Shown piece by piece: positions 3,001 through 34,394 of a stretch of DNA of 64,000 nt. A model generated the notes under the pieces. That model ran no database searches, had not been told where the DNA came from, and worked only from the letters and a program-made list of their open reading frames with translations. The DNA is from Raillietiella orientalis (lineage: Eukaryota): contig JAYWIR010000026.1 of assembly GCA_036172245.1 (NCBI GenBank), positions 868,001 through 932,000 on the forward strand, given 5' to 3'. The first letter of the stretch is position 1. Every line of letters starts with the position of its first letter. The translations under genes were made by a program, and so were the position numbers.

Positions 3001-3297
3001 AGAGCTTCCGGATGGCCCCAACTGGGGAATATACGGACGGACCTCGAGGGCTTCCTTTAACGGATGGGCCCTCCTCACAGCGTTTAGTGATCCCTTCCCT
3101 GCCCTCCAACTTCTTTTTGTCTGTTTATTTTTTATTTTTCTTTTTGTTTTATCCCCATCCCCCTTTGCTGCTGAGGAACGCTACGCTGGGTTGCGTCCCG
3201 GCGTCCTGGCAGGTCCAGTGCATATGGCCGTGAGCGCGGCCTTGTACCGCGGATGTAGAGTTTTATCAATAAACGCCCCGGGCGTACCCGGGTGGAA
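1..3297 (+). mobile_element. Segment A: L1/Tx1-type non-LTR retrotransposon, family 1 (ORF2 from late endonuclease to C-terminal CCHC, plus 3' UTR); 5' part lies outside the window
   Basis: Endonuclease C-terminal motifs IDHVF and SDH; RT motifs KAPGEDG, WRPIT, KAFD, GIRQGDSLSPLLF, YADD; zinc finger CVRC-x8-H-x4-C. Stop at 965-967, frameshift near 2170 and stop near 2359. 3' terminal motif AATAAA(3268)-CCCGGG/CCCGGG hairpin-TGGAA. Confidence 0.93.
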
Positions 3298-3844
3298 ACC
3301 TCCAAGGCTGGCAAGAAGGCCGTAAGGCGTCCGGCCTCCCCTCAGGAGTCCCCCACTTCCGACCCCGAGGTGGAGGCCGGAAGCGCAGCCTCCGTTACCA
3401 CGGCACCGCGCAAGAAGGCTGGACGTAAGTCCACAAAGCCAAGGAAGCTCGTTTCCCCCGTCGAAGGGGAAGAGATGGCTACCGCAAGCGAGGGTGCCAT
3501 GAGCGTGGGAAACTCTCGGGACCCGTCGCCCGAGAGACTCCCACGCGCGGACACGGAGGGGATAGAGGGGGTGGAGGCCGAACAGGTGCCTCAGGTGCCT
3601 GAGAAGGCCGAAACCCCCTTGGACATCCCGCCTGCCTCGCAAGAGGAGGGCTCCCCCACACCTTAATCTTCCCAGCAGTAATGCCGGGAATCTCCTCCCG
3701 CCGTCGTCTGCGCATCGCCGTTTGGAACGTGAACGGCATGAAAGACGCCGGCAGAAGACGAGACATATCCGCCCTTCTGGAGTCCTACGACCTAGCGCTG
3801 CTGCAGAAGATCCACGTGATCTCTGCAGAACAAGCGCAAGAGAT
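3298..3844 (+). mobile_element. Segment a: ORF1 C-terminus and ORF2 start of a family-1 element (left part of element a+G)
   Basis: ORF1 tail resembles segment I (KKAVRRPA...RKKAGRKS). ORF2 begins MPGISSRRRLRIAVWNVNG (APE endonuclease N-terminus), breaks at AQEI and resumes at 17813. Confidence 0.88.
3833..3844. repeat. Target-site duplication, left copy, AGCGCAAGAGAT (right copy 17813-17824)
   Basis: Identical 12-mer at both ends of the minus-strand block 3845-17812. Removing the block restores ...AEQAQEIERISGGRL. Confidence 0.9.
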
Positions 3845-6800
3845 TTCTCACCCGGTCACGCCGGGGCGTTTATTCCATATAAGATAACCAAAAAAAGCAA
3901 TTATACAAAATATACCAGTTGGGAACCAAACATCCAACCGACGACTGAACAAGAATGAAGAGAATATTGCTGACACGCAGGCCAGAGTAACAGTTTTGCG
4001 AACGGCGTGAGGGGGCGGGGAACACAAAGAAATCAAAATAAAATAAAAACAATGAATAAGGAGGACGGGATAAGGGTCTTTGGGATCGCTCTGGAAGACA
4101 CGGGAATAAAAGCATGGGCACCGGAAATTTTACCGAGCGAACGAAGACGGGGTATGGGTGGGCGAGAGGTCGCAGGGGTCACCGGATTACGCCGTTCTCA
4201 AAGGTGTGTAAACAGGCGATGTATGCCGGTGATATCCTCCTTCACCTTGTCACGAAGATGAGGCCACCTTGAAGCCTTCTCCATGAATTGAGCTGCAAGC
4301 AGGTGAGCCTGCCTTCGCTGCGATGACAACTCCAGGGCGTAGCGGGCCTTCACGATGGCGCGAACGCAACACATGGTTGCGACAATCGCGCCAACCGAAA
4401 GTCCATTTCTGCTAAAGAAGCGCCGCAGCACATCAATGGCAGTGCCTCCTTGTGGCATGATGGCCGAAGTGAGCCTTCGCCACAGTTCCCGGAGGTCACC
4501 GCAGTCCAGCAAAAGGTGCGGAAAAGACTCGATCTCTCCGCACCTTAAACAGTTTGGCAAAGCAGCTCCCCCGGAAACGATGCTTCGCTGCCTATTACAG
4601 TGAAATGCACAATGTAAAAAGAGCAGCACATCTTGTTTCCACTTAAGGGGGGACACGGAGCTGTCCAAACAAACGGGGGGAACCACTATCTCTCCGGGGA
4701 ACACACTTAAATGTTCGCTCCACCGAAGCAGTCCCTTTGCCCGATTCCGAGGTGTGGCGGCTTGCACCAGCTCCTTTGTCGTCCAGCTGCCGAGGAGCTT
4801 ACTGAGTCCCGCTATTTTGCAGGAGAACTCCCATTCCGCCGGTAGGCAACCGTCGTTGCTTGCCCTGAGGGCAGACAGCGCTGCGGCGAGTGGTGTGGCG
4901 GCCAGACGATCCGACAACTTCTTGTCCTGCATGACTTCGTCCATTTGATGACTGAGGAGAAGTCGCAGGCGTCGAAGATCTTCCGGGCGCGTTCCTTCGG
5001 AAGCTGCCCACGATGAAAAAGATTCCTGTCGCCATGCATTAATGTTCATGGGGCGGCAGGAGATCCAGCTTTGGGCTTCCAGCAGTGAGGACAGCTGCCT
5101 CAGCGGGAAGCCAAACCCTATTCTGGTGTGCCGAAAGTGGGGTGGCAACGAAAGCAGTCCCTCGCTTCCCGTGCAGCGCCTCAGTATAAGGCGTGCGGGT
5201 CAGCACCACGGCGTACACCACAGCTTGGCACAGAGCCGCAGCATGCGAAACTGCACCTGCAGTTCTTTGCTGTTTAAGTCGAGGATGCCCAAGCCTGCAT
5301 CCTGACGCGGCGCCACCAAGTCTTTAAGTCTAACACGGGATCTTGCAGCGCCCCACAACGCTTTGCGTAGAAGGCGCTGCGCCCAGACTTTGACTTCCTG
5401 GGGGGGTGGACAAACAAAAAACAGGGGGCGGAGTAGGGGGGCAACGAAGGTGTTCCAGATGCAGGCCCGTTCCGGCAAGACGAACTCGCCTCCTGAAAAC
5501 GGGCCAAGTGCACGCTCTGCCTTCCGAAAGCAGTCCGACCACGCTTCTGAGATGCAGAAGTCGCCCAACGGCACGCCGAGGTACCTGAGGTACCTGCCCG
5601 TGAGGATCCCCAGGTCGATCCAGTCAGAATGCCCCTCCCACGTCGCACCCACCGGAACAACCATACACTTACTCCTGTTAACGCTCACGCCCGCAAAGCG
5701 ACGAATCAACTCAAAGAAGTCTTCAAGCGATGTCGCCGGGGTGGACATGGGCAACAGAAGAAGCAGGTCGTCGGCATAGGCTGCCACGGCCGGCGTACCT
5801 GGACAGGAGCTCGGCAGGTTGGCTAGCGTCAACCTGTAAGCCTCCAGCACCAATTCAAAATAGATGCTGAAGAGCAGCGGGCTTAAGCTGTCACCCTGCC
5901 TAATTCCTCGTCGTACCAACACGCCGTACACGCGACAGCCACTAAAAACAATGGATGTAATCGCGTGGCGCCAGCAGGAGCGCAAGTACGCCAACAGGGA
6001 TGCCGGAAGACCCAGACGTTCCAAAAGCTCAAGAAGAAGCTTTTGGTTCACGCAAACGAAAGCTTTGTGCAGATCGACTGCAACCGCCAAGGCTCCGGTG
6101 TCTCCCTTTGCGTCCCGCGCCTCCGTCGGTGAGAGATCGAAGGCATCGCTTCCGCACGACGATCCACCGCCACACGATGCTGCAATTGCAGCCATGTGCG
6201 GATGAACAAGAGATTCGCGTCCATGGACCGCCCAGGAACAGCGTACGTCTGCTCCGGACTTACCAAGGATTCCGCGATCCTCCCCATCCGCGCCACCCAA
6301 AGTTTCGAGAACAACTTGACGTCCGAATTCACTAATGTGATCGGACGCCAGTTGTTCAGTTGGCACAAATCTCCGCCTTTCGGCAGTAGACGCACCTTCG
6401 CTGAGCGAAACGAGGCGGGGACATCGCCCGAGTCTCGCATCAGCGACGAGAGTTGGAGCACCAGGGGGATGAGCTCCGCCGCAAAACACTGAAAGAATTC
6501 CGCGGGGAGCCCATCTTCGCCTGGCGCTTTTCGTCTCTTGAGCCCCGAGATCGCCGAGGAAATTTCCTCTGCCGTGAAGGGCTCATCAAGACGCGCGCGT
6601 TCCTCCTCGTCTACAACAGGTGCATCAATCGGCAGAAGCAGCCGGGAGAGGCTGCGTTCCGTCGGTGCCTCTGCATACAGAGAAGAGTAATAGCGCCTGA
6701 CTATCCGTCGCACGTCGGCTGGAGCCGAGCATTCCCGGTCCTGGTCGTCGAGCAGAACTGCCGCCCCTGACTGCCAGACCTGGCGCTCGGCCTTGGCCTT

Positions 6801-6943
6801 GTACTCGGATAATCGACCAACGTCCGCGCGCCTGGAAAAGGAGCAGGCCTGCAGAAAATCTCTGCTGTTGGCTACGCCCTCTCCGAAGCCGCGCGGAAGC
6901 TGGTGCAAGGGAAACCGGCAGCAGAACTCGCGGACCGATCTTT
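3845..6943 (-). mobile_element. Segment B: family-1 element, ORF2 from the EN-RT linker to the end, plus 3' UTR
   Basis: ORFs 6048-6908, 5200-6489 and 4198-5148 give RT (YADD) and CLRC-x8-H-x4-C, with frameshifts. 3' motif AATAAA (3869-3874, minus) + CCCGG/CCGGG hairpin. Confidence 0.92.
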
Positions 6944-8592
6944 GGGGATGCTCACGGTGAGGTACTTCAAGTACCTTGATGTGCCGTTGGGGGACTACTC
7001 CCCTGCGGAAGCGTGGTCCGGCTGCCTATAAAAAGTAGAGACGGCGATCGGCCCGTTCCGAGGCGGCAGGTTTTTCCTGCCTGAACGGGCCGCGGTTTGG
7101 AACACGTTCGCGGCTCCTCTCCTCCGCCCCCTGCTTTTTGTTTGCCCCCTTACAGAGAGAATTAAAAAGCGGACAAAGGACCTCCTCCGTATCGCCCTTT
7201 GGGGCAACGGGAGGGCCCGAGTCCGCTTAAAGGACTTGTGCGCTCCTCGTCGGGATGGTGGTCTGAGCCTCCTGACGCTGGAGTGGCTGGAGCTTCAGCT
7301 CCAGTTCCGATTGTCGGCACTCGTTCCAGAGTTGTGGTGCACCTGTTGGTGCGTCCCTGCACGTATCCTTCTCCAGCAAGCCACCGGCAAGACGGGACTG
7401 ACGTCGTTTCTTGCACTCCGTCGCCGCGTCAACCGATGCGGACTCCAGCTAAGGAGGGTGGCTGCGCTGTATCGGAAAAACCCAGGATTGCTCACCTGTC
7501 GCCAGTTTAACGGTAGTGCCTGGTTACAGGAAACCGTTCGAACGTGGGGACAGTTCGGCATGCAACGCTCCCAACAGGAACGAAGGTTCCTGTTTGGGGG
7601 TTACAGAAGTTGCACGCTCCGCGAGATCCTGGAGGATCCAAAGAAGAGAGCGTGGGCAGGAAGAACCGCCCTCGCTGCTGCGCTGCCCTCCCTGATGGAA
7701 GATCTGGACAGCAATGTTGCGGCGAAGTGGGTGGTTACAGTAACAATCTCCGGAAAGGAGAAGAAGATAGGAGAGTGGAAGACGGGCCAGTTAACAGACG
7801 CTGCGACCCCGAGTACGCCTCCCAATGGACTTCTGCGTTGGGGCGCGCTGCTCGATGTTCCCATTGAACATCTGAAGTGGCCCCCGGTGCTCATGAACAC
7901 TTCCGCCCTCCCCTTAAAATGGCAGGAGTCGGCTCTCCTGTTGCAGCACTGGGGACTTCACTGCAACGCCCGCCGACACCACTGGACCTGGGGAGCGGTG
8001 GACCCCAATTGCGTCAGGTGTGGGGAACGGGAGTCCCTCCCCCACCTGCTAGTGAATTGTGTTGCCCTTCGGCCCCTTTGGTTTCGCTTTGCCGCGGCCA
8101 TCGGAATCCCCTGCGGCAACCCCAGGGACACACTGAAAGTCCTCTTCGTTGCCGACGCCCTTCGGCCAGCGGCCTCGTTAGCAGCTTTGTGCTGCCTACT
8201 CCGGATCGTCACCGCTTGGAGCAAGGCTACAAGAGGACAACGCGACCAGGGTGCCATCCAGCCAGCCTTCCAGTTCCAGAGGAGGGCGTCCCGATGGCCC
8301 CACCTGGATCCAGAAATACAGAAGGAGCATGCCGGCATCCTGCAAAGGATGCAACGGCCCCACCAGCAACTGTGATCCCTTCCCTTACCCTCCCAACTTT
8401 TCTTTTCTTTTTTGTTTTGTTTTTTGTTTTTCCTCCTTCCCCCTGCTGCCGTGGTGGACCGTACCGGTCTGCAAACCGGTGACCCGGCAGGTTCTGTGTT
8501 TCTTCGTGCGTGGCTGGAGCAATGGTCCAGCCACTGCACGTCTTTGTAAATGTTTGTTTTATAATAAACGCCCCGGCGAAATCCGGGTGAAA
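6944..8592 (+). mobile_element. Segment D: family-1 element lacking its 5' part (late RT to CCHC, plus 3' UTR)
   Basis: VRYFKYL..., ORF 7236-8375 with CVRC-x8-H-x4-C. 3' motif AATAAA(8563)-CCCGG/CCGGG-TGAAA. Confidence 0.92.
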
Positions 8593-11054
8593 ATCGAATG
8601 CTTTGTGCAAATCTACTGCTGGTGCCAAGGCTCCCGGCCTTTCTTCCGTCCGTTCGCACTGGCGCACGCAGTCGGCAGAAGGTCTTGCCGCTGTTCGGCT
8701 ATCCGCTGCAACGCGCTCTTGGAGCTGCCACCAGGTGCGCGCGAAAAGAAGGTTCGCATCCATGGATCTACCCGGTACAGCGTAAGACTACTGCGGGCTT
8801 ACCAGGGACTCCGCGACTTTCCCTAAGCGCGTGACCCACAGCTTCGAAAACAACTTGACGTCCGTATTCACTAATGTGATCGGACGCCATTTGTTGAGTT
8901 GGCGCAGATCCCCTCCTTTCGGAAGGAGACGCACCCTTTCTGAGCGGAAGGAAGAAGGGACATCGCCCGTCACCGTCATCAGCGTCGAGATTCTAAGAAC
9001 CAGTGGGGCGAGTTCCGCCGCGAAGCTCTGATAGAACTCCGCGGGCAGTCCGTCCTCACCTGGCGTTTCCCGTCTCTTGAGTCCTGCGATGGCGGAAGAA
9101 ACTTCCTCCAACGTGAAGGGCTCGTCGAGACGATCGCGTTCCTCCTCGCCGATGCCATGTGCAGCCCGCGGCAAAAGTAGTTCGGAGAGGACTCTTTCCG
9201 TCGGGGAATTAGCGTAGAGCGAGGAGAAGTGACGCTTTAGTGCTCGCCGCACTTCGGCAGGAGCCGTGCATTCCCGGCCTTGGTCGTCGAGCAGAATAGC
9301 CGCTCCAGACTGCCAGACCTGGCGCTCGGCCCTCGCCTTGTACTCTGCGAGTTGCCGGACTTCCGCACGTCTCGAGAAGGTGCGCGCCTGCAGAAATGCT
9401 CTGCTATTGGCCACGCCTTCCCCGAAGCCGCGTGGTAGCAATTGCAGGGGGAACCGGTCGCAAAACTCGCGAACCGATCTTTTAAGATGGTCCCAGTCTG
9501 CGAGTTCCCGGATGGCAAAGCCGCGAAGGAACTGGCGAAGATGCTCCGCCGCTTCCATATGACTCAGCCAATCCGCCGGCATCCTCCAAACATTGTTTGG
9601 AGGTCCCTTGCCAGGCGGGAGTAGCTCGAACTCCAGCCTATCATGGTCCGATAACGTGGACGGCACCCTGCCTCTCCTTCCCACTCGCGAGAGTAGGTGT
9701 TCATCGAGGTAGAGGTGATCCACGTTCCTTTCCAGTCCAGGCTCGCCGGCTTCCAAGTTACGCGCGTGCACCAACGCGCATGCTTCTTCCACCCGCGACC
9801 GTTCCGCCAGGGATCGGGTCTCGTTGTAAAGCAGGTGGACGTTGAAGTTCCCTGCGACGAGATGCGCCACTCTGGCTCCGGAGTTTCTGAGCCATTGGCT
9901 CTTCAGCACGTCGAAGAACTCGATTCTTTCGACACGCCGATGAAAGCCGCTCGGCGCGTAGACGTTCGTTACGACGAGGTCGATTGAATCTGACCACTTG
10001 AGTACAAGTTGGCCTCTTCTGCCTTCCTTGTCGAATCGAACGCTGCGCACTGCTCCCGCCATCCTACTATTAACGAGAAACCCGACTCCGCACGATTGTG
10101 CAAAACCTTCTCGCCAGTACAGGGTGCCACCCGCGCGCTGTTCGATTTCGGCAACCTCCTCATCGGAGATGTAATGCATCTCCTGAAGGATCGCCAAATC
10201 GAAATGTCGCAGGGTGTCTGACACGTCGCGCCTCTTTCCGTCCCTGCGCAGCCCATTGACGTTCCAACAGGCTACGCTGTATCGACGGAAAGAGGCGATT
10301 TCCTGCATTAAGGCTGGGAAGGTGAGAACAGATTTCTCGCCTTGTCCGGCGAGTCGTCACGAGACAGAGCGGTCGATCTCGGAGACTGGACATCTCCATT
10401 CGAAGCCGCACTGCTTGTTGCCGATAGCTCAGAGGTGAGGTCCTTTTCCTCCTCTTTGCTCTCCAACAACAGTTTCTCCTCGGCAACCACGCGGTTGCGG
10501 ATCTTCGGGAGGCGATTGCGCGGTTTCGGGCGGTTGTCGCGCTGTGTGCTCTTTCTGTCGGACTCTGGATCGGAATCCGACAGTCGAGCGCTTGCCAGGC
10601 ACTGCTGCTGTTTCCCGGAATTAGGGAGATCGTTCGCTGCCTGTTTCCTAGCGCTTTCTGCAACTGCGCCTGGGACTTTCGTCCTCTTAGCCGCAGCAGC
10701 AGCTTCCCGCTCCAGCCGCGAGAGGACGATTGCGCAGGAGGAAAGAATCGCAATCTTTTTCTGGGAAGGTTTCGCGGGTTTCTTTCGCCCACTCACCTTC
10801 ACACAGAGCTGCGAAGACCTTGATGGTTTCTTTCGAATGATCTTTCTCGCCTGCATCCAGCCGTCTTCCTTCGCGTCGCAGTTATCTTTGCCATCCTGAA
10901 ATGGCGCTGCTCCCACGGATGTAAGAGGCGTTGCCTTGGCTGCCTCTTGAAGTGCTGCCTCCACGCAGGCGTAAGCAACTCCTTTAGCGATCGCGAGAGC
11001 CTTGCGCACGGGCGGTATCGCCGCCGCTGAACGAAAGGGAGGCGTGATTATTGC
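8593..11054 (-). mobile_element. Segment C: family-1 element, ORF1 C-terminal half plus ORF2 endonuclease to RT 'KAFD'
   Basis: ORF 8788-10308 has WNVNG, LQE, NVYAP, GNFN, SDH, WRPIT. ORF1 stop overlaps the ORF2 ATG (TAATG, 10310-10306). Cut at AVDLHKAFD by segment D. Confidence 0.92.
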
Positions 11055-11146
11055 TAGTTTAAAACTATACCCAATACCCCGCCAAGGCAGTGTTTAAAAC
11101 CACTGCCAAGGCAATTTTCGAGTGCCCTGAGAGGGCAAGTGTTTGA

Positions 11147-13019
11147 GTGAACGCCAGTGTGGAAAGAGTGCAACCCGGGACCATCATCATCATCAGCAGC
11201 AGCGCCGAGAATTCCACGGTGGAAGTCCTGCAGTCGTCCCGAGCAGCCGGAACAGCTGCCAGGATGCAGGCATCTGGAGTTGGAGGAGTGGTGAGGCCAT
11301 CGTCCCCCATGGAAGCCATGGAGGTAACGTGCGGCAACGGCGAGGTTGCGAGAGGCATGCCGAGGATCGCACCCGCGGCGGGCTTTGCTGCGCCGGCGGC
11401 GGCGATGCCAAGGGTCGTGCCCGCGGCGACGACGGCGGAGGTCGTGCTCGCGGCGGGGAAGGTCGCTCCTGCGGCGGCGATGCCGAGGGTGCCGCCCGCG
11501 GCGGTGACGTCGAGGTTTGCGCCCGCGGCGGCGGCGTCCCAGGCGGGACCCGCGGGCGTTCACGCGGTGCAGGGAGCGACGCCATCTGGTTCGGCTGCGG
11601 CGTCGCAGCCCTTTTCTTATGCGTCGGTGGCGGCTGGACAGGCGAGTGTCCACCCACCTAGGAAATTTGGTAAGCCGCTTAGCGGAAAAGTTCTAAAAGT
11701 GGACCGACCAATAGTCGAAATAGGCCCCAACGTGAAGCCCATTATCTTCAAGACCGGGCTAATAAAATTTAATAAAATCAGGGAGGTCTATTTGTCCCTC
11801 GACAAGACGGACATAGACTTTGATCGCATTCAGGCGATCATTCCATCAAACAACGGGTTCACAGTCTTTACAGACTGTGAAAACATTAGAGAGCGATTGA
11901 TCCAGAAGGGGATCAATATACAAGGACGGATGGTTTGTGGTATTGGTGAGATGCCATACACAACCGTCTTTTTAAACGGCATCTCCATCCTCACACCGCA
12001 ACTAGCGGTGTGGAATTACTTGGAGCAGTTTGGGGAAGTTCTGGACCTCGATTTCCAGAACTTCTCTGGAAACATATTTTCTGGCGACATGATCGCCAAG
12101 ATGAAGTTGAGGGAGGGAGCGGTGATCCCTGGATTGGCCGTTATTGACGAACAATCCCAGGGAGTGAATGTGCGTTACCGGCAACAACCGGTATTCTGCA
12201 CCGGGTGCAAGCACTTCGGCCACAGGGCCGGCGCTTGCCCAACTTGCCGCTGCTTTCGCTGCGGCAAAGTAGGATATCAAGTTCGAAACTGCCCGCAGCC
12301 GGAGGTGTGCTCCTTCTGCAAGAAACACGGACATGCGAAATGGAGCTGTCCGGAGTTTGAAAACTGCAGAAGGATTCGAGGTCTCTCTCCCGTGAGAGAG
12401 AGAAACATCAAGGAGGCCGAACAGCCTTAGAAGGCAGGAAGGCCGAAGAAGGTGAAAGAAGCCGTCCCGGTGTCGGCGGACGGCTTCATAGAAGTGGGAA
12501 AGAAGAAAAAGAGCAGGATGCTCGTCAAGGAGCAAGGAACTCCTCAAATCCTGGAAGCAGCAGAGCAGGAAGGCGAGAAGATGGAGGCAGCGCAGGAAGG
12601 CGCGAAGGAAGAGAGACAGGAAGCCACTAAAGTGTCGCAGGAGGCTCTGCAGACCACAGAGGAGTTGGCAACACTGGCGGAGGAGATCATGGAGGTGCAG
12701 AGCGGTCCTCAGCAAGAGAAAATCTTGCAGAAGATCTGCACTGCACAAGAGAACATCAACCAGGTTGTGGAGGTCGCTGAACGCGAGAAGTTAGAGGAAC
12801 AGCTTCTCGACGTGAAGGCGAACTTCTGCGCCAAGGTCGAGATAGAGGCGCTATCTCGAAAATTGATCGCGCAAGCGGAACACTCTACGGAGGAGGCAAA
12901 AAATTACTGACCTCACAGGTACGGAGAGTGACGCCGGCAGCGAGAAGCCCGCTGCTTCTTCATTGTCTGGAAGAGCACGCTCTCTCAGACAGAAGAAGCT
13001 CAGGAAGGCCAAAAAATAG
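11147..13019 (+). pseudogene. ORF1 (gag-like zinc-knuckle protein) of segment E, disrupted
   Basis: Knuckles CTGCKHFGHRAGAC, CFRCGKVGYQVRNC and CSFCKKHGHAKWSC; Ala/Pro-rich N-terminal repeats; internal stop at 12428-12430 and probable frameshift near 12900. Start codon uncertain. Confidence 0.8.
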
Positions 13020-13032
13020 GTCTTCCCCTTTA

Positions 13033-16000
13033 ATGGCCTCTTCCCTATCGACCGCCAGGAGGATGAACATCGCCTCCTGGAACGTAAACGGTGTGGTCGA
13101 CCAGGGAAAAAGAAGAAGGATTGTGCGGACCATCGCACAACAAGACATCGTGTGCCTGCAGGGGACCCACAGGATGGGTCTGGAGATAAGCCAGCGAATG
13201 GAACGACGATTCAACGGGCAGATGTTCGTCAACGAAGGAGAACGGAACACGAAGGGTGTGGCGGTGCTAATAAAGAACCACTTAGCCCCCACTATTCTGG
13301 AAGTGTTCTGTCCCCAACCCGGACGAATCATCGGCGTGCGACTGGCCTGGTCCGCGACTGTTCACCTTATCCTGGTTCACTTTATCGCATCCAGGGGTTT
13401 CGTGACACTATGACTACGGTGTCCGATCACCCCCTGGTGCGGTTTTCCCTAAGAACGGAGAATCCTCGGCGGAGGCAAGGCACCAGGGCGGCGCTCATCA
13501 GCATGCCCGCCTGGTTCGAAACCCATCCCGGACATCAGGCTGTCCTGGAGGCGATTCTGAGGGCAACAACAATCCGAAGAGTCGCCGACTGGGACAGCCT
13601 GAAACACAGGATACACCTGTTTGCGAACATGCAGTTCGGGGATAGGCGCTTGAAGCAAGAGGCGTACCGGGAGCTGAACATCCAAGATCGCTCCCTCTCA
13701 AAGTACTTCGATCAGTACGAGAGTCGGTACGTCCTCAATAACATAAAAGGGGAAGTCGGCGTGCTGGAGAAGAGAAATCTGGCAACAGATATCTTCTGCA
13801 TCCGGTACGACGGCCAAAAGCGACAGTCGTCTGAGGACATCGTGGATGCCTTTCACAGGCATTACACGAAACACTTCAGGCGACAACAGCTGTGTCGCTC
13901 TAGTCAACAGGCCTTCTTGAGCTATCTCGAGAAGAGGACCGACGACCTCCAGCGGAACAGACTGGAGGAGGAGTTCTCCGAAGAAGAGGTGAAGACTGCG
14001 TTTGGGCAACTTCGCAAGGACGTGGCAGCGGGCGCTGACAGTGTACCCATCACGCACTATCAGCGGTACCTGCACGCCTACCTGCGCTTGTTCCACCAGT
14101 TGACCGTCTGCATCCGGGAAGAAGGCAGACTACCTCAGTCCTTCTACGAGAGTCGGATGAGATTGCTGCCGAAAGGAGGCGACTCTACCCAGATCGCCCA
14201 ATGGAGGCCAATCTCGATTCTAAACTCCGATGCCAAGTGGTTGGCGAATATCTGGTCCAACCGCTTAGGCAAGGTCATGTCGAGGCTGATCTCTCCGGTC
14301 CAGACATGTGCAGTCCCAGGACGACACATGTCGGACAATGTCAAGTGTGCCCAGGCCACTGTTGGACTCAGTCGATACGTCGGCGAGAACCTGGTGCTGG
14401 TGTTCACTGACATGGAGAAGGCCTTCGACTCCATCGACCACGGGATGCTGCTGAAGGTTCTGGAGAAGCTAGGGCTTCCGGAACACTTCAGCAACTTCGT
14501 GAGGGCAATACTCCAGAACCAGTACTGCCGGATCAAGATCAACGGCCAGGAGACGGCAGCAACCAGGATGGAACGAGGAGTCCGACAGGGCGACTCGCTA
14601 AGTCCGATGCTGTTCGTCATCTATATGGAGGCGTTGTCGTCCTTTATAGAGAAGAGCGGACGACTAAGCGGGATTACCATCGATAGCCAGCGTCTTACCC
14701 ATCTGGCATACGCCGATGATCTACTCTTCTTCATCAAGGGAGAGAAAAATCAGCGTGCGTTTCTGGATGTGGTGGACCTGATGGAACAGGGCTTGGGCTT
14801 AAAAATCAATTCCCAGAAGAGCCAGCTTTTGCCCGTCGGAATACTGGATCTCTCCACTCTAAAGGGTAGTGGATTCCGTACGGTGGACACGGCCAAGTAC
14901 CTGGGAGTCTACATCGGCGACGGCTCTGCGTCGAAGCTGCTGTGGAAGGAAATCCTGGGGAAAACGGCCAAGGAAGCAGCCAAGTACACCCGAACGGACC
15001 TTGGGATGAAGCGAAAGGCCAACATATGGAACGCAGTACTCCTTCCGAAAGTGCTCTTCGGGGCGGCCTTCGCGAGGATGAACAAGGACACTACTAGGGA
15101 GTTCGACAAGCTGCAAAGAAAAACACTCTGGGGCCACTATCGCCCAAGAGTAAGACTGAAACCCCTGTGTCGTCCCAGGGTAGAAGGCGGTTCCGGGATG
15201 AAGTCGCTTGCACATTCCATGGAAATCATGGATACGCGACACATCCTGGACATTGCCACTCACTGGGATGACTGGCCGTATGCGGCGCACAGGGCCTACG
15301 CGTTGTTGCTTAACAACTCGAAAGGCCTGATGACTGCGCTGCTAGGCAAAGTAGGGGAATGGATAACAATCGACCCGACCTGGAGGAGGAAGCAACGGCT
15401 GGTGCGGAAGCACCAAATCAAGATCGTGCCGCGAAGCAGGGAATTCTGGCAGGACGAGTCCATCCTGGTGATCCCTTGGTTGCTTCCTGTCCCGCCGGAC
15501 ACGAGAAGCTGGATCTACCAGCGGTCCAGAGTTACCCTACTGCAAATCCAGGAGTGGAGGCGAGGAGGCTACCTACATCAAACACGTATACTTCGGCATA
15601 CAGAGATGATGTTAGGAAGGTTTACCCACAGGACCCGCGAAGTGTGGTTCAACCACAACGACTTCGCATGGTCGAGGGTAACCAGAACAAACCTCCGAAG
15701 GCTTATCCAAGAAAACGACCGTGACACCAGTGCCCTCCAGGAAGCCACCGAACGCTACGGGAGTGAACGGTTCAACCTGTTAGCGATCGGCACGACGCTC
15801 TGGAGGAGTGACCTTCCGCCGGGCACCCAGGATGACCTCCTGATGTTTTATCACGGAGGAATCCAGAGTGGGTCCCGATTGCAGCACTTCACATGAAGAC
15901 GGGAAGATCGAGACTGCACAGCATGTGGAGACATTGACACGAGACTGCACGTCTTGACGTGTCCCACATTGCTGCATGACTGGCTGATCCTGAAAAGTAT

Positions 16001-16307
16001 CATCGGACTCACCACCAGGTCCGTAATGGAGATCCTCGCCGGGATGTTTCATGGGGATGGTAATGTTCCCTGTTACAATCCCATGGTGAGGACGACCATC
16101 GCCCTCTTCATCACCGCCATACTTGTGCGGTGGTGGAAAATGAGGAAAGCCAGAAGAGCCGCACCACCGATGGAGATCCTACAAGGGCTCCTGAAGAGGG
16201 CAATCGGCATTAGAAACTGTGGGAAAATCCAAACCTGGACGTACCGATTCATCCTGAAGAGGATAGAAGACGACGCCCGGGACCAAACAGCAGGAAACCC
16301 ACCATGA
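13033..16307 (+). pseudogene. ORF2 (APE endonuclease-reverse transcriptase) of segment E, disrupted
   Basis: Starts MASSLSTARRMNIASWNVNG. The middle of the endonuclease (NVYAP/GDFN region) appears deleted, with a frameshift near 13390. RT is open to 15896, where there is a stop just before the CCHC. Confidence 0.88.
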
Positions 16308-16451
16308 GTGCAGAACTTGTGAGAACCCAAGGACTTCATAGTGGTAAAAAAAAAGTGCTAATGGTATAAATGAGATTGTAGTGTGAATGTTTTTATAGAA
16401 AAATTTTAGAAAAATAAATTTACCCCACCCCTCGTGGGACTTGCGGAAAAC

Positions 16452-17812
16452 TGCCGAGTCGGCGATGGGGCGACTGCATGTAGCGTGCTTTTGCTTGTCG
16501 CGACGCTGCTTTTTACGGCTTTCGTAGCCTTTGCAGAGGGGCCTGCGCTGCAGTGGGGCTGTCCGGAACTCGGAAGGGACAACGGAACGGGGCAAGAAGT
16601 CTTCGCACTGTTGCGATCTTCCTGTTTTCCTACCTTTCCCTCCAGGGTGTTACGGAGATTTCCTGGTTCCTGGCTCGGAGAGGTGCCTGCGAGTTCGGCA
16701 GAGAGGGAAGGCACGGCACGCGTCAAACCCTCGCGCCCCTTTTTAATTGGCTTCCTCGCCGTGACTTTCCCCTTTCGGGGCGTTGCGGGCGGGGATGCTT
16801 TCTTTTCATCCGCGGATCGCTCGTGGTTTTTTCCGAGTTTTTGCAGACGACGTTTTCTATTTGCCGCTGCGGATTTTCGTGCAGTGGTCTCTTGAACCCG
16901 ACGAATTTCCGCTGCGGCTCTTTTTCTTGCAAGTACCGGGCACTTTTTGATTTGGTGCCCGGAATGTTTGCAATTGCGGCATCTTGGAGAGGGGCACTCT
17001 TCAATTCGGTGCCCATCCTTGCCGCACTGCTCGCACGCTCGAATCTGACCTATGAACCACAGGTGAACGACCGTGCCGTTCACCTGCAACTGCTCAGGCA
17101 CAACACGCCTGTTCGCGACGGTGATCCGCGCGGAGGCTTGTCCAATGTGGACAGACGGAAAATCCTTTAGAGGATTTGGCCTCCTCCACAGAGCGTGCAC
17201 CGTGGCAAACTTCGCCATCACACTTACGACATCGCGGTCGGAGATTTCCGGTTTGATGTCGCACAATTGAACGACAAAAGAGTCGTCCATCGCAATAGGT
17301 AGTACTTCCTTGCCATTGATGGTCAACGGCGTACGGAGAAGGCGCTGCAAAAGTGCTGCGTTCTTGCACCGAATCTTCGTATATTCCATCCTGCCAGCAG
17401 GCATTATGGCAAGAAGTTCCTTCTCGCGAACGCCGATCCGGACGAGCTCATCATTGAGCTCACGACCGATTTTCCCGTTGAGGGGCCCACTGACCTTATA
17501 ACGGAGTGCAGGCATGTATCCTAATGACACATATGCCTGGAACTCCGCATCGCAGGGTCCTGGTCTTTGGGAGGTAACGGCGGCGCAACTACTCACTGGG
17601 GGCGAGGAAACCTTTACAGAGGATGCGGCTGCTTCAAGTGCAGCTGAAGTGCCTCCAGTGGCTTCCTCCTCCACACTATCCTGTGTACTGGCCATGTTGC
17701 ACTATGCTACTTGGCAGATTGCACAGAAACACACAAGTGCGAGCGAAAACGCAGGCACAAAGTTGTTCGATCGTTGGCGCGAATAGACGCGGAAACACGT
17801 CTGCACTGTACG
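16452..17812 (-). mobile_element. Segment F: 5' UTR plus ORF1 N-terminal part of a family-1 element (likely continues as segment C)
   Basis: ORF from ATG 17695 with knuckles CEQCGKDGHRIEEC and CRNCKHSGHQIKKC, homologous to ORF1 of segment I. 5' motif GTGCAGACGTGTTTCCGCG lies next to the TSD. Confidence 0.88.
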
Positions 17813-19366
17813 AGCGCAAGAGATCGAACGGATCTCCGGAGGGCGGCTATGGTAAACGTGCGGGAGAGCGAAAAGTTGCGGTGTCGCCTACCTGCTTCGG
17901 CCAGCCGTCGAGGCCGCGGTTCGGGGCGTGCGGTTCGACGATCACGGTCGTGTCGGCCAGCTGACTCTCAGGTGGTCCGACTCGATCGATCTGAGCGTCA
18001 CGAACGTGTACGCACCGAGCGGCGCGGACCTGATGACTAGGAGGGCGAGGAAAGAGTTTTTCCTTGCCCTACGCCGAGACTGGCTGACCGAAGCAGGCGT
18101 GCGGAATGCACATTTGGTTGCAGGCGATTTCAACGTTCGCCTGGAACCAGATGGGCAGAATCCCGAGCGTGACCTGGCCAACGAGGTGTGCATGGCGGTG
18201 CACACCTGTAATTTGTTGGCCAGTGCACCGCAGATGGAAGACAGCATTGACCACGTGTTTCTTGACGAGTACCTGTGCCCTTGCGTAGGCAGGCGCGGCA
18301 AGTTTCCGTGCGAGCTGTCCGACCATCGCCCGTTAGTCCTCGAGATCCATGCGCGCCGCAGGGGCCCCCCTCGTCAGCGTGGCTTCTCCCAGGGAACTGG
18401 CTTAAGCTCCCGGACGCTACGAAACATCTTCGCACGTTCACACGTAGCTTCAGGATGCAGACACTCCAGGATTGGGACTGCTTCAAAAGGTCCGTCCACG
18501 AGTTCTGCGACCAGTTCCCTCTGCACCGCCTACCTACGGGTTTTGGGACCAGGGTCCGTAACGAACGAGCCTATCTGCAGGCTCGCCGTTACGCCAGGAC
18601 CCCCGACATCCGCAGGCTGGCGAAATACAAAGCGGGAGCCGAGAGGCAAGCCTGGCAGTCCGGAGCGGCCAGCTTACTGGACGATCAGGGCCAGGAGCAC
18701 TCGGCACCTGCCCAAATCCGCGACCTGCTGCGGAGTTACTACTCCTCCCTGTATGCCAGGGCACCTCCGGAGAGGAACGTCTCACGACTCCTGCTTCCGG
18801 AAGGCGCTCCAGCGATCGGGGAGGAGAAGAGAAAGACCCTCGACGAGCCTCTCACGATGGACGAGATACTCTCGGCCATCGGAAAGCTCAAGAGGCAAAA
18901 GGCTTCAGGGGAGGACGGCCTGCCCGCGGAGTTTTATCAAACTTTCGCGGCTGAGCTTACCCCCCTGGTACAGCAACTCACCTTGCTGATACGCGAAACT
19001 GGTGACGTTCCCGCCTTGTTTCGTTCGGCGAAGGTGCGGCTCCTCCCTAAGGGAGGAGATCTGAGGAGCATAAACAACTGGCATCCCATCACAATAGTGA
19101 ATGCGGACGCCAAGTTGCTAGCAAAGGTTTGGGCATAGCGTCTGGGACGGGTTGCCAACATCTTCATCAGCCCGGAACAGACATATTCTGTTCCCGGGCG
19201 AAGCATGGAGGCGAACCTGTTCCGCGCTTCCACCTGGCTAGACCTCCAACATGAAAGGAGCTTGGTGCGCAACCGGAATTCCGGTGCGTGCTCCGGCAAG
19301 AGGTTGGATGCTCGAGTGGGGGAAAGAGTTCTTGCGGTCTCAATCAACTTGCGGAAAGCATTCGAT
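17813..19366 (+). mobile_element. Segment G: continuation of segment a (endonuclease to RT 'KAFD')
   Basis: AQEIERISGGRL..., NVYAP, GDFN, SDH, WHPIT, with stops and a frameshift. Cut at NLRKAFD by segment H. Confidence 0.9.
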
Positions 19367-21723
19367 TTTCACCTGGATTTCTCCGGGTCCTTTATTAAAA
19401 AAATAAACTTTGTAAACAAATTATTAATGGCTGTGGCAATGCTCGAGCCAGAAGCTAAGGACCACGGCGCCTGCCAATTCACCGGTTTCTAGACCGGTGC
19501 GGTCCACCAAGGCAGCAGGGGAATGGGGAAAAACAAAAAAAAAAAACTAAACAAAAAAAACAAAGGGTGGGAGGGCACGGGAAGGGATCACTGTTGCTGC
19601 TGGGGCCGCATCATCCCTCTCAGGATGCTGGCAAGCTCTTGTTTGTTGTGAACATCCAGGTGGAACCATCGCGACGCCCTCCTCAGGAATTCGGAGGAGA
19701 ACTGGATGGCTTCCTGATCGCTAGGTCCTCTCATCGCCGTGCTCCAGGCGGCGACGATCCCACGAAGGCAGCACAAGGCTGCTATCGAGGACGCTGGCCG
19801 CAGGGCGTCGGCAACGAAGAAGGCTTTTAGTGCGTCCCTGGGGTTGCTGCAAGGGATACCGATGGCCGCGGCAAAGCGGAACGAAAGGGGCCGAAGGGCA
19901 ACACAATCCACTAGGAGGTGTGGGAGGGACCCCCGTTCCCCGCACCTTACACAATTGGGATCCACCGCTCCCCAGGTCCAGTGGTGTCGACGGGCGTTGC
20001 AGGGGAGTCCCCAGTGCTGCAACAGGAATGCCGACTCCTGCCATTTTAAGGGGAGGGCGGAAGTGTTCATGAGCACCGGGGGTCACTTCAGATGTTCAAT
20101 GGGAACATCGAGCAGCGCGCCACAGCGCAGAAGTCCATTGGGAGGCGTACTCGGGGTCGCAGCATCAGTTAGCTGGCCCGTCTTTTACTCTCTCTGCTTC
20201 TTCTCCTTCCCGGAGATTTTTATTGTAATCTCCCACTTCGCCGCAACATCGCTGTCCTGATGTTCCACTAGGGAGTCCAGCGCAGCAGCGAGGGGGGTTC
20301 TTCCTGACCACGCTCTCTTCTTTGGATCCTCCAGGATCTCAAGAAGCGTGCAACTTCCTTAACACCCAAACAGGAACCTTCGTTCCTGATGGGAGGGTTG
20401 CATGCCGAACTGTCCCCACGTACGAACGGTTTCCTGCAACCAGGCACTACCGTTCGCGGGGAGACAGGTGATCCATCCTTGATTTTTCCTTGCCAGCACA
20501 GCCACTTTCCGTAGCTGAAGCCCACATCGGTTGATGCGGCTTCGATGGAGTGCAAGAAACGACGTAAGTCCCGTCTTGCTGGTGGCTTGCTGAAGAAGGA
20601 GACGTGCAGGGACGCACCAACAGATGCACCACAACTCCGGCACAAGTGCCAAAATCCGGAACTGGAGCTGCAGCTCCAGCCGCTCCAATGTCAGGAGGCC
20701 GAGACCACCGTCCCGACGCGGAGCGCACAAGTCCTTCAAGCGGACTCGGGCCCTCCCGTTGCCCCAAAGGGCGATACGGAGGAGGTCCTTCGTCCGCATA
20801 TTTTGATCCTCTCTTCGGGGGGCCAACAAAAAGCAGGGAACGGAGGAGAGGAGCCGCGAACATGTTCCAAACCGCGGCCCGTTCAGGCAGGAAAAACCTG
20901 CCGCCTCGGAACGGGCCGATGGCCGTCTCTACTTTTGAAGGCAGCCGGACCACGCTTCCGCAGGGGAGTAGTCCCCCAACGGCACACCAAGGTACTTGAA
21001 GTACCTCACCGTGGGGATCCCCAAACGGACCCAGTCCTGCTGCCCTGCCCACGCCGCACCAACTGGCATCACGGACGACTTCGCCCTGTTCACCGTAAGC
21101 CCGGTTCCTCGATTCAGCAGGTCGAAGAACTTCTCGACCGCCGAAGCCGGGGTGGACATAGGGAGCAGTAGCAGGAGGTCGTCCGCATATGCTGAAACCG
21201 CAGGCGTTCCGGCTTATTCATGTGGCAGGTGCGCCAGAGTTTCCCTCTACGCTTTCAGTACCAACTCAAAGTAGGTACTGAAGAACAAGGGGCTCAGGCT
21301 GTCTCCTTGCCGGATCCCACGTCGCAACGGCACGCCGTGAACAGTATGCCCGCTGAAAGTAACATTGATTAGCGCATCGCGCCAGCTAGAGCGCAGATAG
21401 GCCAATAATGAGGCCGGGAAGCCCAAGCGTTCCCAAAGTTCCAGCAGGAGATTCTGGTCGACGCTGTCGAATGCTTTACGCAAGTCGACAGCGACCGCAA
21501 GTGCTCCCTCCCCCATCCGACCATCCGTCGCATGACTGACGGACTCACCAGATTCACCGGTGCGCATCAAGCCCCTTTCGTGTTGGAGCTCTAGCCAGGT
21601 GGAAGCGTGGAACAGGTTCGCCTCCATGCTTCGCCCCGGAACAGCATACGTCTGTTCCGGGCTGATGAAGGCGTTTGCAACCCGTCCCAAACGCTCAGCC
21701 CAAACCTTGGCTATCAACTTGGC
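19367..21723 (-). mobile_element. Segment H: 3' part of family-1 element L+H (RT to CCHC, plus 3' UTR)
   Basis: AKLIAKVW...KAFD...QGDSLSP, then YADD and CVRC. Close relative of segment D. 3' motif AATAAA (19391-19396, minus) + CCCGG/CCAGG-TGAAA. Confidence 0.92.
21711..21723. repeat. Target-site duplication, left copy, CTATCAACTTGGC (right copy 31973-31985)
   Basis: Identical 13-mer flanks the plus-strand element 21724-31972. Removal restores minus-strand IVNADAKLIAKVW. Confidence 0.92.
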
Positions 21724-24119
21724 GTGCGGACGTGTTTTTTCCGCGCTCCTCTGCGCCTGTTGTAAAGCGTGCTTTTTAGGTAGTGTTTGTGTGTGGAGCA
21801 TCTGCGGTGTCCAATGGCAGAAATGCTTGAGGACACCGCGATGGAAGTCGGCGGGAGAGAGGATTGCTCCTCTCCCCAACCTATTGAGGTGGGGGCAACC
21901 GCCCCCACGGAGGAGAGAGCAACCGCTCCCTTGAAAAAGGGGCAACCGCCTCTCCGGAAACGAGGGCTACTGCCACCTTGAAAAAGGGAGCAACCGTCCT
22001 CGTGCAAAAGGCCGCAACCGCCCCCTTGAAAAAGGGGACAACCGCCGCCTTGGAAAAGGCCGCAACCGCCCCCTTGAAAAAGGGGACAACCGCCGCCTTG
22101 GAAAAGGCCGCAACCGCCCCCTTGAAAAAGGGGACAACCGCCGCCTTGGAAAAGGGCGCAAACGCCTCCTTGAAAAAGGGGGCAACCGCGTCCTTGGATC
22201 CACCTGCTCCAGGCACGAAGACCTGGAGCTCCGTGGCTGCAGCGACATCTCCTGCTGCCTTAGCAGAACAACGGAACTACCTGGAACAAGGATACAAGCC
22301 GTCCTTGATTTACAAGGTAGGAAACCTGTTTATAGGGAACACCGCTCGTAACTTTGAAAGGGAGTTACAGCGGTTGGATGTTAAAGAGGAAGACCTGGAA
22401 GGTCTCTCCGTGATGAGTGGGGGCCAGCGGGTGGAGCTGACGTGCAAAAATGCAAGTCTGGCTCAACGCCTGCTGAACACTCCCATCACTCTGGAAGGCC
22501 GAAAAGTCTTCCCTGTAACGGAGGACCGCTCCATTGTTGCTCACCTTACGGGTGTAACTCTTCGCATGACCAAAGCTGGCGTGCAGGAAGAGTTACAAAA
22601 ACATGGTACGGTGCACGCGCTCTGGACCAAGCCCAACGTCTTCCAAACATACGGAAGACTGTTCAGTGGCATGGCTGCAGCGCGTGTGACGGTCCACGAA
22701 AACGGTGGGCTGCCCCACAAACTCGACGTCGGCAACGAGGTCGTCGACGTCTGGTACGTGGGCAAGCCCAAGTACTGTGGGCACTGTGATGCAACACGGC
22801 ACCTGAAAAAACGGTGCCCACTCATCCAGTGCTTCCACTGCGGCGAAAAGGGCAACCTGCGGAAGATGTGTCCTAAACGCGAAACCCCAGCTCCCCCTGC
22901 TTTGAAAAAAGCCAAAGGGAAACGCGCGGGGCGATCGGACAAGCCTAAGGAGGCACCCGAGAGGCGGAACCCACAGGCGGAGCCCGAGCCCGTACAGCAA
23001 ACGCCGGTCGTGGAATCCACCGACGACGCTGAAAAGAGCGAAGGCTGGCAGAAGGCGAAGCCTAAAGCTAAAAAACCAAAGAAAACCGAAGCATCGACAG
23101 CGGAACCCGCGACGTCTCCTTTAAATAGGAGACAACGCCGCGCGTTGATCCGCGAATGCTCGGTAGCTTTGGAGCGTGTGGAGGTACCCGAGACCGCCAC
23201 CGGGGCAGATATCCCCCGCGTCGACGCCGACGCTAACGCGATCACGGAAGGCGAACCCTCTGTGCAAACAGAGGGGGAGCCGCGCGACGCGCTCTCCGCG
23301 ATCGACGAGGCCGCCTTCCAGCAGGCGGCGGAAGAGCTCGCGGCCGAACTCGCCGACCGTGAGAACATCGCGCGAAAGGCCTTGCGAAGGCCGGCCGCGA
23401 CCAGGGCACCTCCGACAGGTGACCACGACCCGGATCCCGGAAGTGCGTCCTCTTCCACGGAGGCGCCTCCGAAGAAGACTGGACGGAAGTCCAAGAATCC
23501 CAAGAGGCGCATCCCGACGAAGAGCGAGGGGGACGCACCGGCAGCCGAAGGGGAAGCCGGCAGCGTGAGAACGGAGGGAGGAATTTTCCCACCCTCCGCC
23601 ACCGAGCAGCAGGCCACCCCCATGGAGGAGGGGGAGCAGGTAGGGCATTGCCTCCCCCTTCCACCGGTGGAGCCTGCGGAGAAGATGGTCATGAAAGAGG
23701 GGGAGCAGACAGCTGAGATCCGCTCCCCCCTGCCGTCCATCGCAGTCGAGGAATCGGCCCCCATGGAAGAGGGGTAGCAGGTGCGTGAAGCATGCTCCCT
23801 TCAACCGTTGCGGTCGCCGAGGAATCGGCCCCCATGGAGGTGGGATAACCGCTGGGCGGTGCCCCCATGCCTCCATCCGTCCCGCCCGACCAGGTGGCGG
23901 GAGCCCCATTGCCACTTTCCCACGACTAACACCTGGGCTCGCCTGTCGCCGTCGATTGCGTGTGGCCTGTTGGAACGTCAACGGGCTGCGCGACGACGGC
24001 AACAGACGGGACACGGCCGCCACCCTGCGTGACTTCGACCTGGCACTCCTGCAGGAGATCCACGTGATCACCGAGGAGAACGCCCGGGAGATCGAAAGGA
24101 TCGCAGGGGGACGGTTGAT
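21724..24119 (+). mobile_element. Segment I: 5' UTR, ORF1 and ORF2 start of the full-length family-1 element I+K (21724-31972)
   Basis: 5' motif GTGCGGACGTGTTTTTTCCGCG. ORF1 probably starts at ATG 21814, shifts frame in the repeat region and is open 21978-23777, with degenerate knuckles CGHCDATRHLKKRC and CFHCGEKGNLRKMC. ORF2 reads RVACWNVNG...IAGGRL. Confidence 0.9.
21895..22195 (+). repeat. Coding tandem repeat in ORF1, 24-bp unit with 48-bp higher order (ATAPLKKGTTAALEKA)
   Basis: GCAACCGCCCCCTTGAAAAAGGGGACAACCGCCGCCTTGGAAAAGGCC repeated about 3 times almost exactly, with diverged 24-bp units on both sides. Confidence 0.9.
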
Positions 24120-31766: not shown

Positions 31767-31972
31767 TCCCTCCCCAACCCTCCCAAATCTTTTTGTTTTT
31801 ATGTTTTATTTTTCTTTTTGTTTTTTCCCCCCCCCCCTTCCGCTGCCGAGGAGAGTCGCGCCGGTCTGCGTACCGGCGACCCGGCAGGTCCAGTTGAGTT
31901 GGCCGTAGTGGGGCCTCGTACCACGAACCAAAGAGAATTTTGAATAAACGCCCCGGCGTGACCGGGTGGCAT
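28365..31972 (+). mobile_element. Segment K: remainder of element I+K (ORF2 and 3' UTR)
   Basis: Resumes exactly where segment I stops (IAGGRL|MWQCGTRYTCGVGF). 3' motif AATAAA(31943)-CCCGG/CCGGG-TGGCAT. Confidence 0.94.
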
Positions 31973-32762: not shown

Positions 32763-32850
32763 TTTCCCCAAGTCCCACAAGGGGTGGGGTAAATTTATTT
32801 TCTATAAAAATAACATTCACACTACAATTTTATATTCACACTCTCATTCA
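32763..32850 (-). mobile_element. Segment m: ~90-bp 3'-terminal fragment of family 2
   Basis: The reverse complement ATTGTAGTGTGAATGTT...AAATAAATTTACCCCACCCCTTGTGGGACTTGGGGAAAA matches the 3' end of segment E (16375-16450). Confidence 0.88.
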
Positions 32851-34047: not shown

Positions 34048-34394
34048 ACTCCCCGATGTCCAGTGAGATGATCGTGCTCTTCTTAAAAGTCCCCAATGGA
34101 GCAGAAGCAACGCCGTCTCCTGCCATTTCAGGGGAAGGGTGCCGTTATCCCAACCCGCTGGGGGCCACTTCACCTTCTTCGGAGGTACGTCGAGCAGCGC
34201 GCCCCAGCGTATAAGTCCATTCGGCGGGACAGTGGGAGTACTAACGTCCGCTAGTTCCCGAGACGTCCACGCCTTCAACAGTTTTTTTCTGTTTCCGATG
34301 AGGCAGGACACTTTCCACGATGTCTCTTGCTGGTTGTCCCGAACTTCCCTGATGGACTGGGGCAAGGGGGATGAAAGAAGCCTACAGAAGTTTC
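34048..34394 (-). mobile_element. Segment O: internal ORF2 C-terminal fragment of family 1
   Basis: WKVSCLIG...WTSRELAD...LPLKWQETALLLLHWG, cut at HWTSGS by the 3' end of segment N. Confidence 0.85.

Follow-up and report, generated by a model that had tools for sequence, protein, structure and literature searches.

What decides where a long interspersed nuclear element (LINE) lands when its neighbours are other LINEs? The question is raised by a stretch of 64,000 nucleotides (nt) of the Raillietiella orientalis genome (GenBank assembly GCA_036172245.1, contig JAYWIR010000026.1, positions 868,001 to 932,000 of the forward strand; hereafter the window), which begins with a nest of LINE copies. 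Two copies of one subfamily, D and H, here called the beta family, end at the same base and in the same orientation within the reverse transcriptase (RT) genes of two different host LINEs, C and G, and did so in independent events. We put at roughly 0.65 the probability that beta is an L1-like LINE that strongly prefers one kind of target, the sequence that encodes the K-A-F-D motif of LINE RTs. The likeliest determinant of the site would be recognition by the element's endonuclease.

Both junctions can be read directly. Copy D ends in ...CCGGGTGAAA at position 8592 and ATCGAATGCTTT starts immediately afterwards, which on the minus strand, that of host C, reads AAAGCATTCGAT. In plus-strand host G, AAAGCATTCGAT immediately precedes TTTCACCTGG..., and copy H, read on its own minus strand, ends in ...CCAGGTGAAA at 19367, followed by the same 12 bases as after D. 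The 12-mer occurs exactly once on each strand of the window. At the end of both host RT frames K-A-F-D is in frame (VDLHKAFD in C, INLRKAFD in G), uninterrupted copies show VDL[HR]KA[FL]D at the homologous RT position, and both D and H lie antisense to their host RT genes. A sequence-only reading of this DNA had described the two elements as abutting one 12-mer, antisense and at one nucleotide of a conserved RT motif, and this description holds for each junction. Since AAAGCATTCGAT is host sequence in the correct frame and place, the 12-mer is not a randomly carried flank. The boundary itself is uncertain by one to three bases, with the element ending in AAA, AAAA or AAAATC and the shared host sequence measuring 9-12 nt.

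Elements and hosts were compared separately, and the comparison confirms that one subfamily inserted twice, as D and as H, in independent events and not through a duplication. Across 1340 aligned coding bases the two elements agree at 87.7% (bins of 100 nt within 7000-8199 range from 82% to 98%), and in the 3' untranslated region (UTR) at 75.6% (164/217; 72-79% per bin). Their differences fall on codon positions as 49/41/75 (p=0.003) and the UTR has diverged twice as far as the coding part, a pattern that fits two source elements. They pair as sisters in the tree, and no other copy exceeds 64% identity to them, which bears out their earlier assignment to one subfamily. Truncation at the 5' side differs, D stopping at residue ~684 of open reading frame 2 (ORF2) and H reaching residue ~184, with intact 3' ends in both. 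In tblastn, H aligns with the reference ORF2 over residues 421-1161 (56%), and it retains a VDLRKAFD of its own.

The hosts tell a different story from the elements. Across 1517 aligned bases C and G reach only 59.5% identity; the first host bin stands at 47% and those farther away at 53-73%. Directly beyond the 12-mer, where the sequence-only reading had already seen them differ, 14/30, 24/60 and 33/90 bases are equal without gaps. Identity thus falls at the junction from ~88% in the element to ~47% in the host. Differences between C and G are distributed over codon positions as 183/138/294 (p=2.7e-14), so the hosts diverged as functioning genes under purifying selection, prior to their interruption. 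In the tree C groups with the copies B-left and I (77%), and G with the 5' part of H itself (78% identity). The drop at the junction, together with hosts from different clades that diverged under selection, shows that the insertions were independent: with hosts from two such families, a single ancestral junction in both is impossible.

Does the exact host sequence matter? It seems so. Over the 1548 columns of the C-G alignment, identical runs of at least 12 bases occur at two places, a 14-mer and the junction 12-mer, and fully identical 12-nt windows number 4/1537 with the junction included. When the eight KAFD-type sites in the window are compared by exact sequence (Table 1), both exact 12-mers are occupied (2/2) and variants with one to three mismatches are not (0/6; Fisher p=0.036). 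Both beta copies in the window (2/2) lie at the same nucleotide in the same orientation. The earlier proposal that the subfamily prefers this motif is partly supported by the occupancy contrast and the rarity of such windows, with two copies behind it. RNA guiding through the beta 3' UTR was considered and dropped: no complementary stretch of at least 10 nt was found between that UTR and the target region, which argues against UTR-guided pairing. Searches elsewhere returned little. One public sequencing run shared 0.17 of the sampled words, and of its contigs placed on 6900-21800 at 80% likeness (541) the pieces listed were silent on both junctions. The junction 19-mer had four chance matches in metagenomes, none with the hairpin and none with LINE homology (0/4, tblastn); a 21-nt junction pattern had no matches in a prokaryote genome collection, and among 64 pattern matches to the D protein in that collection none was a confirmed relative.

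The surroundings of these junctions were reconstructed from tblastn with three ORF2 products of the window, self-blastn and junction alignments (Table 1). Positions 1-38641, with a G+C content of 55-64% against 30-50% across the remainder of the window, consist of nested non-long-terminal-repeat retrotransposon (LINE) copies with at least nine 3' ends, most of which adjoin other LINE copies. Pfam finds Exo_endo_phos and RVT_1 in the ORF2 products, RVT_1 spanning residues 426-698 of the reference ORF2, and distant homologues carry zf-RVT. The ORF1 products have an RNA-binding-like region and CCHC knuckles (zf-CCHC, E=2.9e-4). The best PDB match of the nest ORF2 is human LINE-1 ORF2p (E=3.1e-43; R2, E=8.6e-17). 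A protein database search gave 16 matches, the closest (P0001) at 64% identity with an uninterrupted RT and the others at 30% or less; close relatives of the family are almost absent from public protein sets. Host C, with one in-frame stop and zero frameshifts, retains an Exo_endo_phos domain (E=1.1e-11, Pfam) and ends after KAFD. Host G is the continuation of F2 (3299-3844), from which a 14-kb insertion separates it, and a nested J/I/R1 insertion in turn splits the 5' portion of H from its 3' portion. The copy E33 (32852-34048) was tried as the missing 3' part of G; this is unsupported, as E33 clusters with R1 and A and not with D and H.

Table 1. LINE copies, junction features and KAFD-type sites of the nest (positions in the window; minus-strand copies are given from 5' to 3').
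Feature	Position	Strand	Description	Basis
A	8-3298	+	alpha-family copy, related to J/R1 at 81%	
F2	3299-3844	+	ORF1 tail and ORF2 residues 1-65; continues as G	tblastn, junction alignments
B-left	6943 to 3845	-	gamma lineage, ORF2 residues ~260-1151 and 3' UTR	
D	6941-8592	+	beta family, 5'-truncated, ORF2 residues ~684-1156 and 3' UTR	tblastn
D open frame	7032-8375	+		
D 3' UTR	8376-8592	+		
D 3' terminus	8563-8592	+	AATAAA, CCCGG/CCGGG hairpin (8572-8587), TGAAA(A)	regex scan
KAFD site in C	8593-8604	-	host 12-mer AAAGCATTCGAT, K-A-F-D codons of RT; occupied	
C	11110 to 8593	-	gamma lineage, ORF1 tail and ORF2 residues 2-536	tblastn, Pfam
eps	~11112-16450	+	distant family	
M3	17806 to 16451	-	5' UTR and ORF1	
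G	17813-19366	+	beta-like, ORF2 residues ~62-536, ends after KAFD	tblastn
KAFD site in G	19355-19366	+	host 12-mer AAAGCATTCGAT, K-A-F-D codons of RT; occupied	
H 3' portion	21723 to 19367	-	beta family, ORF2 residues ~450-1161 and 3' UTR; frameshifted	tblastn, indels vs D
KAFD site in H own RT	21466-21477		AAAGCATTCGAC; unoccupied	
J	21724-24117	+		
I	~28370 to 24118 (5' limit approximate)	-	gamma lineage, intact 913-residue ORF2; Exo_endo_phos E=6.9e-16	
R1	~28383-31972	+		
H 5' portion	32774 to 31973	-	ORF2 residues ~184-450	tblastn
E33, M7, X35, F10, X38	up to 38641		further copies	
KAFD site in B-left			AAAGCTTTCGTT; unoccupied	
KAFD site in R1			AAAGCGTTTGAC; unoccupied	
KAFD site in A			AAGGCGTTCGAC; unoccupied	
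KAFD site in I			AAGGCGTTGGAT; unoccupied	
KAFD site in eps			AAGGCCTTCGAC; unoccupied	

How do the elements of the nest end, and do other families also return to particular sites? A regular-expression scan for 3' ends gave 12 matches, of which those at 28415, 30232 and 31286 were dropped; they lie inside coding sequence and have no AATAAA/hairpin consensus. Nine elements have one 3' terminus in common, composed of AATAAA, a CCCGG-loop-CCGGG hairpin, TG and 3-5 bases that are mostly A. All nine end 3-5 nt past the hairpin with no long poly(A), four of them in GGTGAAAATC, a regularity that speaks for precise initiation, and AATAAA stands ~24 nt ahead of the element end. In six of the nine 3' junctions TC follows directly after the A-run; a flank that starts with TC implies a primer ending in GA. 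The D terminus folds as a 5-bp stem (energy z-score -0.83). The distant eps copy ends in a different hairpin, CCCAC/GTGGG (16405-16450, plus strand), whose stem is doubly compensated and whose spacing from AATAAA and from the A-run is unchanged, and an 80-nt eps-like tail fragment (32764-32840, minus strand) adjoins the 5' end of H.

Two other insertions in the nest carry target duplications, one of 12 nt (AGCGCAAGAGAT at 3833-3844 and 17813-17824) around the block 3845-17806 and one of 13 nt (GCCAAGTTGATAG at 21711-21723 and 31973-31985) around J/I/R1 within H. The gamma copies form a second same-family pair. The 3' end of B-left adjoins the endonuclease N-terminus of F2 at 3844/3845, the 3' end of I adjoins that of J at 24117/24118, and both are antisense. 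Counted from the place that corresponds by homology to the B-left junction, the I junction lies 26 nt (~9 codons) downstream, and each follows GAT; a neighbouring pair in the endonuclease N-terminus had been noticed before, and the alignment bears it out at this spacing. Within the window beta returns to a family-specific site and gamma does so roughly, while alpha and eps do not. The alpha 3' flanks (3299-3320 and 31973-31990), which lie in different genes, read GCCAGCCTTGGAGG and GCCAAGTTGATAG on the strand of the host and agree at ~8/13 bases by eye; this weak likeness may reflect a short target word.

The mechanism that we propose is target-primed insertion of an element that would encode an apurinic/apyrimidinic endonuclease (APE), that has an RT and whose 3' end consists of AATAAA, a short hairpin and 3-4 A. 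Its preferred target would be AAAGCATTCGA(T), the DNA encoding the conserved K-A-F-D of LINE RTs. The endonuclease would recognise this site and nick the sense strand of the host RT gene just after ...TTCGA(T), and the freed 3'-OH would prime reverse transcription exactly at the end of the beta RNA; priming at that point would leave the element always antisense to its host. Were a second nick to fall ~12 nt upstream, the target-site duplication would be the 12-mer itself, as the 12- and 13-nt duplications at the two other insertions suggest. If this applied genome-wide, the outcome would be a LINE whose habitat is other LINEs, among them its own kin, and which contributes to the growth of a LINE-only island. 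The sequence-only reading had added that such insertions would knock out competing elements, which is speculation. Within the window the 5' part of H has its nearest relative in G (78%) and the H RT itself carries AAAGCATTCGAC, so the family would strike kin as much as rivals.

Several observations weigh against this proposal. The specificity rests on two beta copies, both within the window. Should the final T be part of the element, the site in H itself becomes a perfect 11-mer that is unoccupied, and the occupancy contrast weakens to 2/3 versus 0/5 (p ~0.11). The 5' sides are unclean, and after D or H neither a second 12-mer nor a resumption of the host RT is found. D is fused head-to-head at its 5' end to B-left, a different gamma lineage, with homology between D and H starting at TTTGGGGAT (6941) and ~26 nt of patchy similarity at the joint, and the 5' end of H meets the eps-like fragment and then E33. 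The beta endonuclease domain is missing from the window: residues from ~184 on, the end of the domain, survive in the 5' part of H, and the D frame has no Pfam match. In folding energy none of the hairpins reaches significance (z -0.4 to -1.8), being too short to stand out. Other families behave differently, since A and its relatives J/R1 (81%) occupy different sites, as do eps and the eps-like fragment. A is sense-oriented in an ORF1 tail whereas J/R1 is antisense at residue ~450 of H, and X38 sits in non-LINE DNA.

Could the two junctions have arisen without a preference of the endonuclease? An inverted segmental duplication of one D-in-C composite is suggested by blastn, which aligns 6917-9556 with 21044-18412 as one 2673-nt match at 77.8%. 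The halves of this alignment are unequal (~88% in the element, ~60% in the host), the hosts belong to different clades and diverged under selection, and the two elements are truncated at different residues; these unequal halves, the codon-position bias and the clades refute a duplication, as the sequence-only reading had argued from the divergence of the targets, and we leave it next to no probability. A process with more to recommend it, though still doubtful, would start from a single ancestral beta insertion at KAFD and carry it to other RT genes in a homing-like manner, through gene conversion or ectopic recombination among homologous LINE copies, with tracts ending close by. The nest is rich in homologous RT sequence able to support conversion, the chimeric block 3845-17806 shows that composite sequence is copied or recombined here, and neither host resumes after D or H. 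Conversion would need homology on both sides, however, and at neither locus is the downstream part of the host present; moreover, a dead converted copy would decay evenly, whereas the divergence between D and H is 12% in coding sequence, where it favours third positions, and 24% in the UTR. Nor is identity raised near the junction past the terminal hairpin and the 12-mer (33/40 element bases, then 14/30 host bases).

Base pairing in place of endonuclease recognition deserves somewhat more attention, although we consider it unlikely. A read-through RNA tail carrying the antisense KAFD flank would anneal to other RT genes at a nick or break, and insertion would still be site-specific, but RNA-guided and self-reinforcing. 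The 12-mer is identical in both hosts, synonymous positions included, while the six other KAFD sites differ; the RT of the beta family itself has AAAGCATTCGAC; and the TC after the A-run in 6/9 junctions suggests terminal microhomology. Target-specific LINEs such as R2 and R1 reportedly use co-transcribed target sequence for accurate initiation. For SART1Bm, the accessible part of one study describes an influence of the RNA 3' end on the accuracy of initiation (PMC7265360). Against such pairing, the position of AATAAA favours cleavage at the element end and not read-through, the flank identity ends sharply after 12 nt, and the UTR offers the target no other complementarity of at least 10 nt. 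The remaining alternative is coincidence, in which the nest LINEs would nick a weak GA|T-type consensus and two insertions happened to fall on the same GAT. The frequent TC at the start of the flanks (6/9) is in keeping with this, as is the GAT that precedes all three beta and gamma junctions. Taking an element of ~6.3 kb and two orientations, two insertions would coincide in ~1 in 12,600 pairs; by our estimate ~200 usable sites per element would raise this to ~1 in 200, and GAT-type sites with four same-family pairs in the window bring it to ~2% at worst. Yet the coincidence involves the only two members of one subfamily, with a 12-mer identity seen in 4/1537 windows, and a second same-family pair falls within 26 nt; with a joint probability estimated at <1e-3, we regard chance as very improbable.

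How did the present arrangement around D come about? The 14-kb block 3845-17806 has a full-length 5' end (GTGCAGACGTG..., like GTGCGGACGTG... in J), a proper 3' end and a perfect 12-nt duplication, and for these reasons it looks like a single insertion. Yet the 753 nt over which its 5' half (M3 and C) overlaps its 3' half (B-left) are only 76.6% identical, and the differences fall on codon positions as 48/27/101 (p=1.7e-11). This overlap and its third-position bias rule out that C and B-left are one element split by D with a long duplication. The block is a chimera in which D links two gamma lineages head-to-head. Such a chimera could have formed by a template switch in reverse transcription onto a gamma transcript that already bore a beta insertion at KAFD; if so, the D-C junction would be a copy of an earlier event, yet independent of H-G.

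Some further features of the island are recorded here for their own sake. The N-terminal part of the J ORF1 contains tandem repeats of ~96 nt (21891-22198), with units ~83% identical, that encode KKGxTAxLEKAATAP-like units. At the 5' end of X35 there is an inverted duplication (34049-34394, minus strand, and 34394-35430, plus strand) in which a reversed, head-to-head copy repeats ~350 nt of the coding sequence of the element (residues ~920-1038); it looks like the product of fold-back during second-strand synthesis. An ORF between F10 and X38 (36341-37051, plus strand) has a weak Pfam match to RdRP_1 (E=0.001, 18.3 bits against a cutoff of 23.9 bits) that is probably noise. The LINE island stops abruptly at 38641, where G+C drops from ~55-60% to 30-40%, and ~600 bp past the last LINE there is a nucleotide-sugar transporter exon (39254-39847, minus strand; Nuc_sug_transp, E=8.6e-67).

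Which known LINEs does beta resemble? Among the Tx1 and R1 groups, Tx1L inserts in the DNA transposon Tx1D, R1 in 28S ribosomal DNA and TRAS/SART in telomeric repeats. Target-specific LINEs belong mainly to early-branching groups and to the Tx1 and R1 clades, and the last two use an APE endonuclease, according to the accessible part of a survey (PMC4640811). The R1Bm endonuclease is likewise described, in the portion of the report at hand, as cleaving both target strands specifically (PMC1919474). As far as these sources go, the likeness would consist in an RT element with a putative APE that uses one nucleotide of a multicopy sequence, in fixed orientation and with a precise start at the RNA 3' end, and transposons are among the known targets, as here. 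Hints to its clade come from L1 ORF2p as the best solved relative and from the zf-RVT of distant homologues. Beta differs in its target, the protein-coding RT motif of LINEs, kin included, where the others use RNA genes, microsatellites, telomeres or DNA transposons, and it differs in that two copies stand behind its specificity. With human LINE-1 ORF2p the nest elements share the APE, the RT and a C-terminal cysteine motif. Human L1, however, nicks a loose TTTT/AA anywhere and primes on a long poly(A), whereas the elements here end in a hairpin followed by 3-4 A and seem to use a target of 11-12 bp.

For the nest as a whole, the closest parallel lies in algae, where Zepp is a poly(A)-tailed LINE. 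Zepp in Coccomyxa and Chlorella and ZeppL in Chlamydomonas form nested clusters by insertion into existing copies, as the accessible parts of three papers describe (PMC8226300, PMC3446292, PMC9940879). By these accounts both systems consist of GC-rich, L1-like LINEs nested in islands of tens of kb that are almost purely LINE. Unlike beta, the Zepp nests appear there as arrays of 3' ends, and the parts available name no nucleotide at which insertion is fixed. The nest studied here also contains several diverged families, its insertions are mostly antisense and it has no long poly(A).

In a literature search that left most subscription journals outside, we found no LINE that targets a fixed nucleotide in the RT of other LINEs; absence from print is not established by it. 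The targets of the target-specific LINEs known so far are RNA genes, microsatellites, telomeres and DNA transposons, and a coding motif of the LINE RT would, if our reading is true, be a new choice of target. The endonuclease of beta would then join the candidates for site-specific integration tools as a natural APE endonuclease with an 11-12-bp target. A wider picture, to which we give even odds, is that the beta endonuclease reads an 11-12-bp word for the KAFD of LINE RTs, that of beta among them, and that a guild of sister families keeps landing zones in each other's genes, gamma having its own in the endonuclease N-terminus, so as to build self-contained LINE-only islands, a hyperparasitic or 'safe-haven' life that has not been described for LINEs. 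With a LINE that aims at such a motif, transposons that parasitise transposons would become testable at nucleotide resolution, and the growth of LINE-only islands would gain a mechanistic account, comparable to that for the Zepp-type clusters that mark centromeres in some algae.

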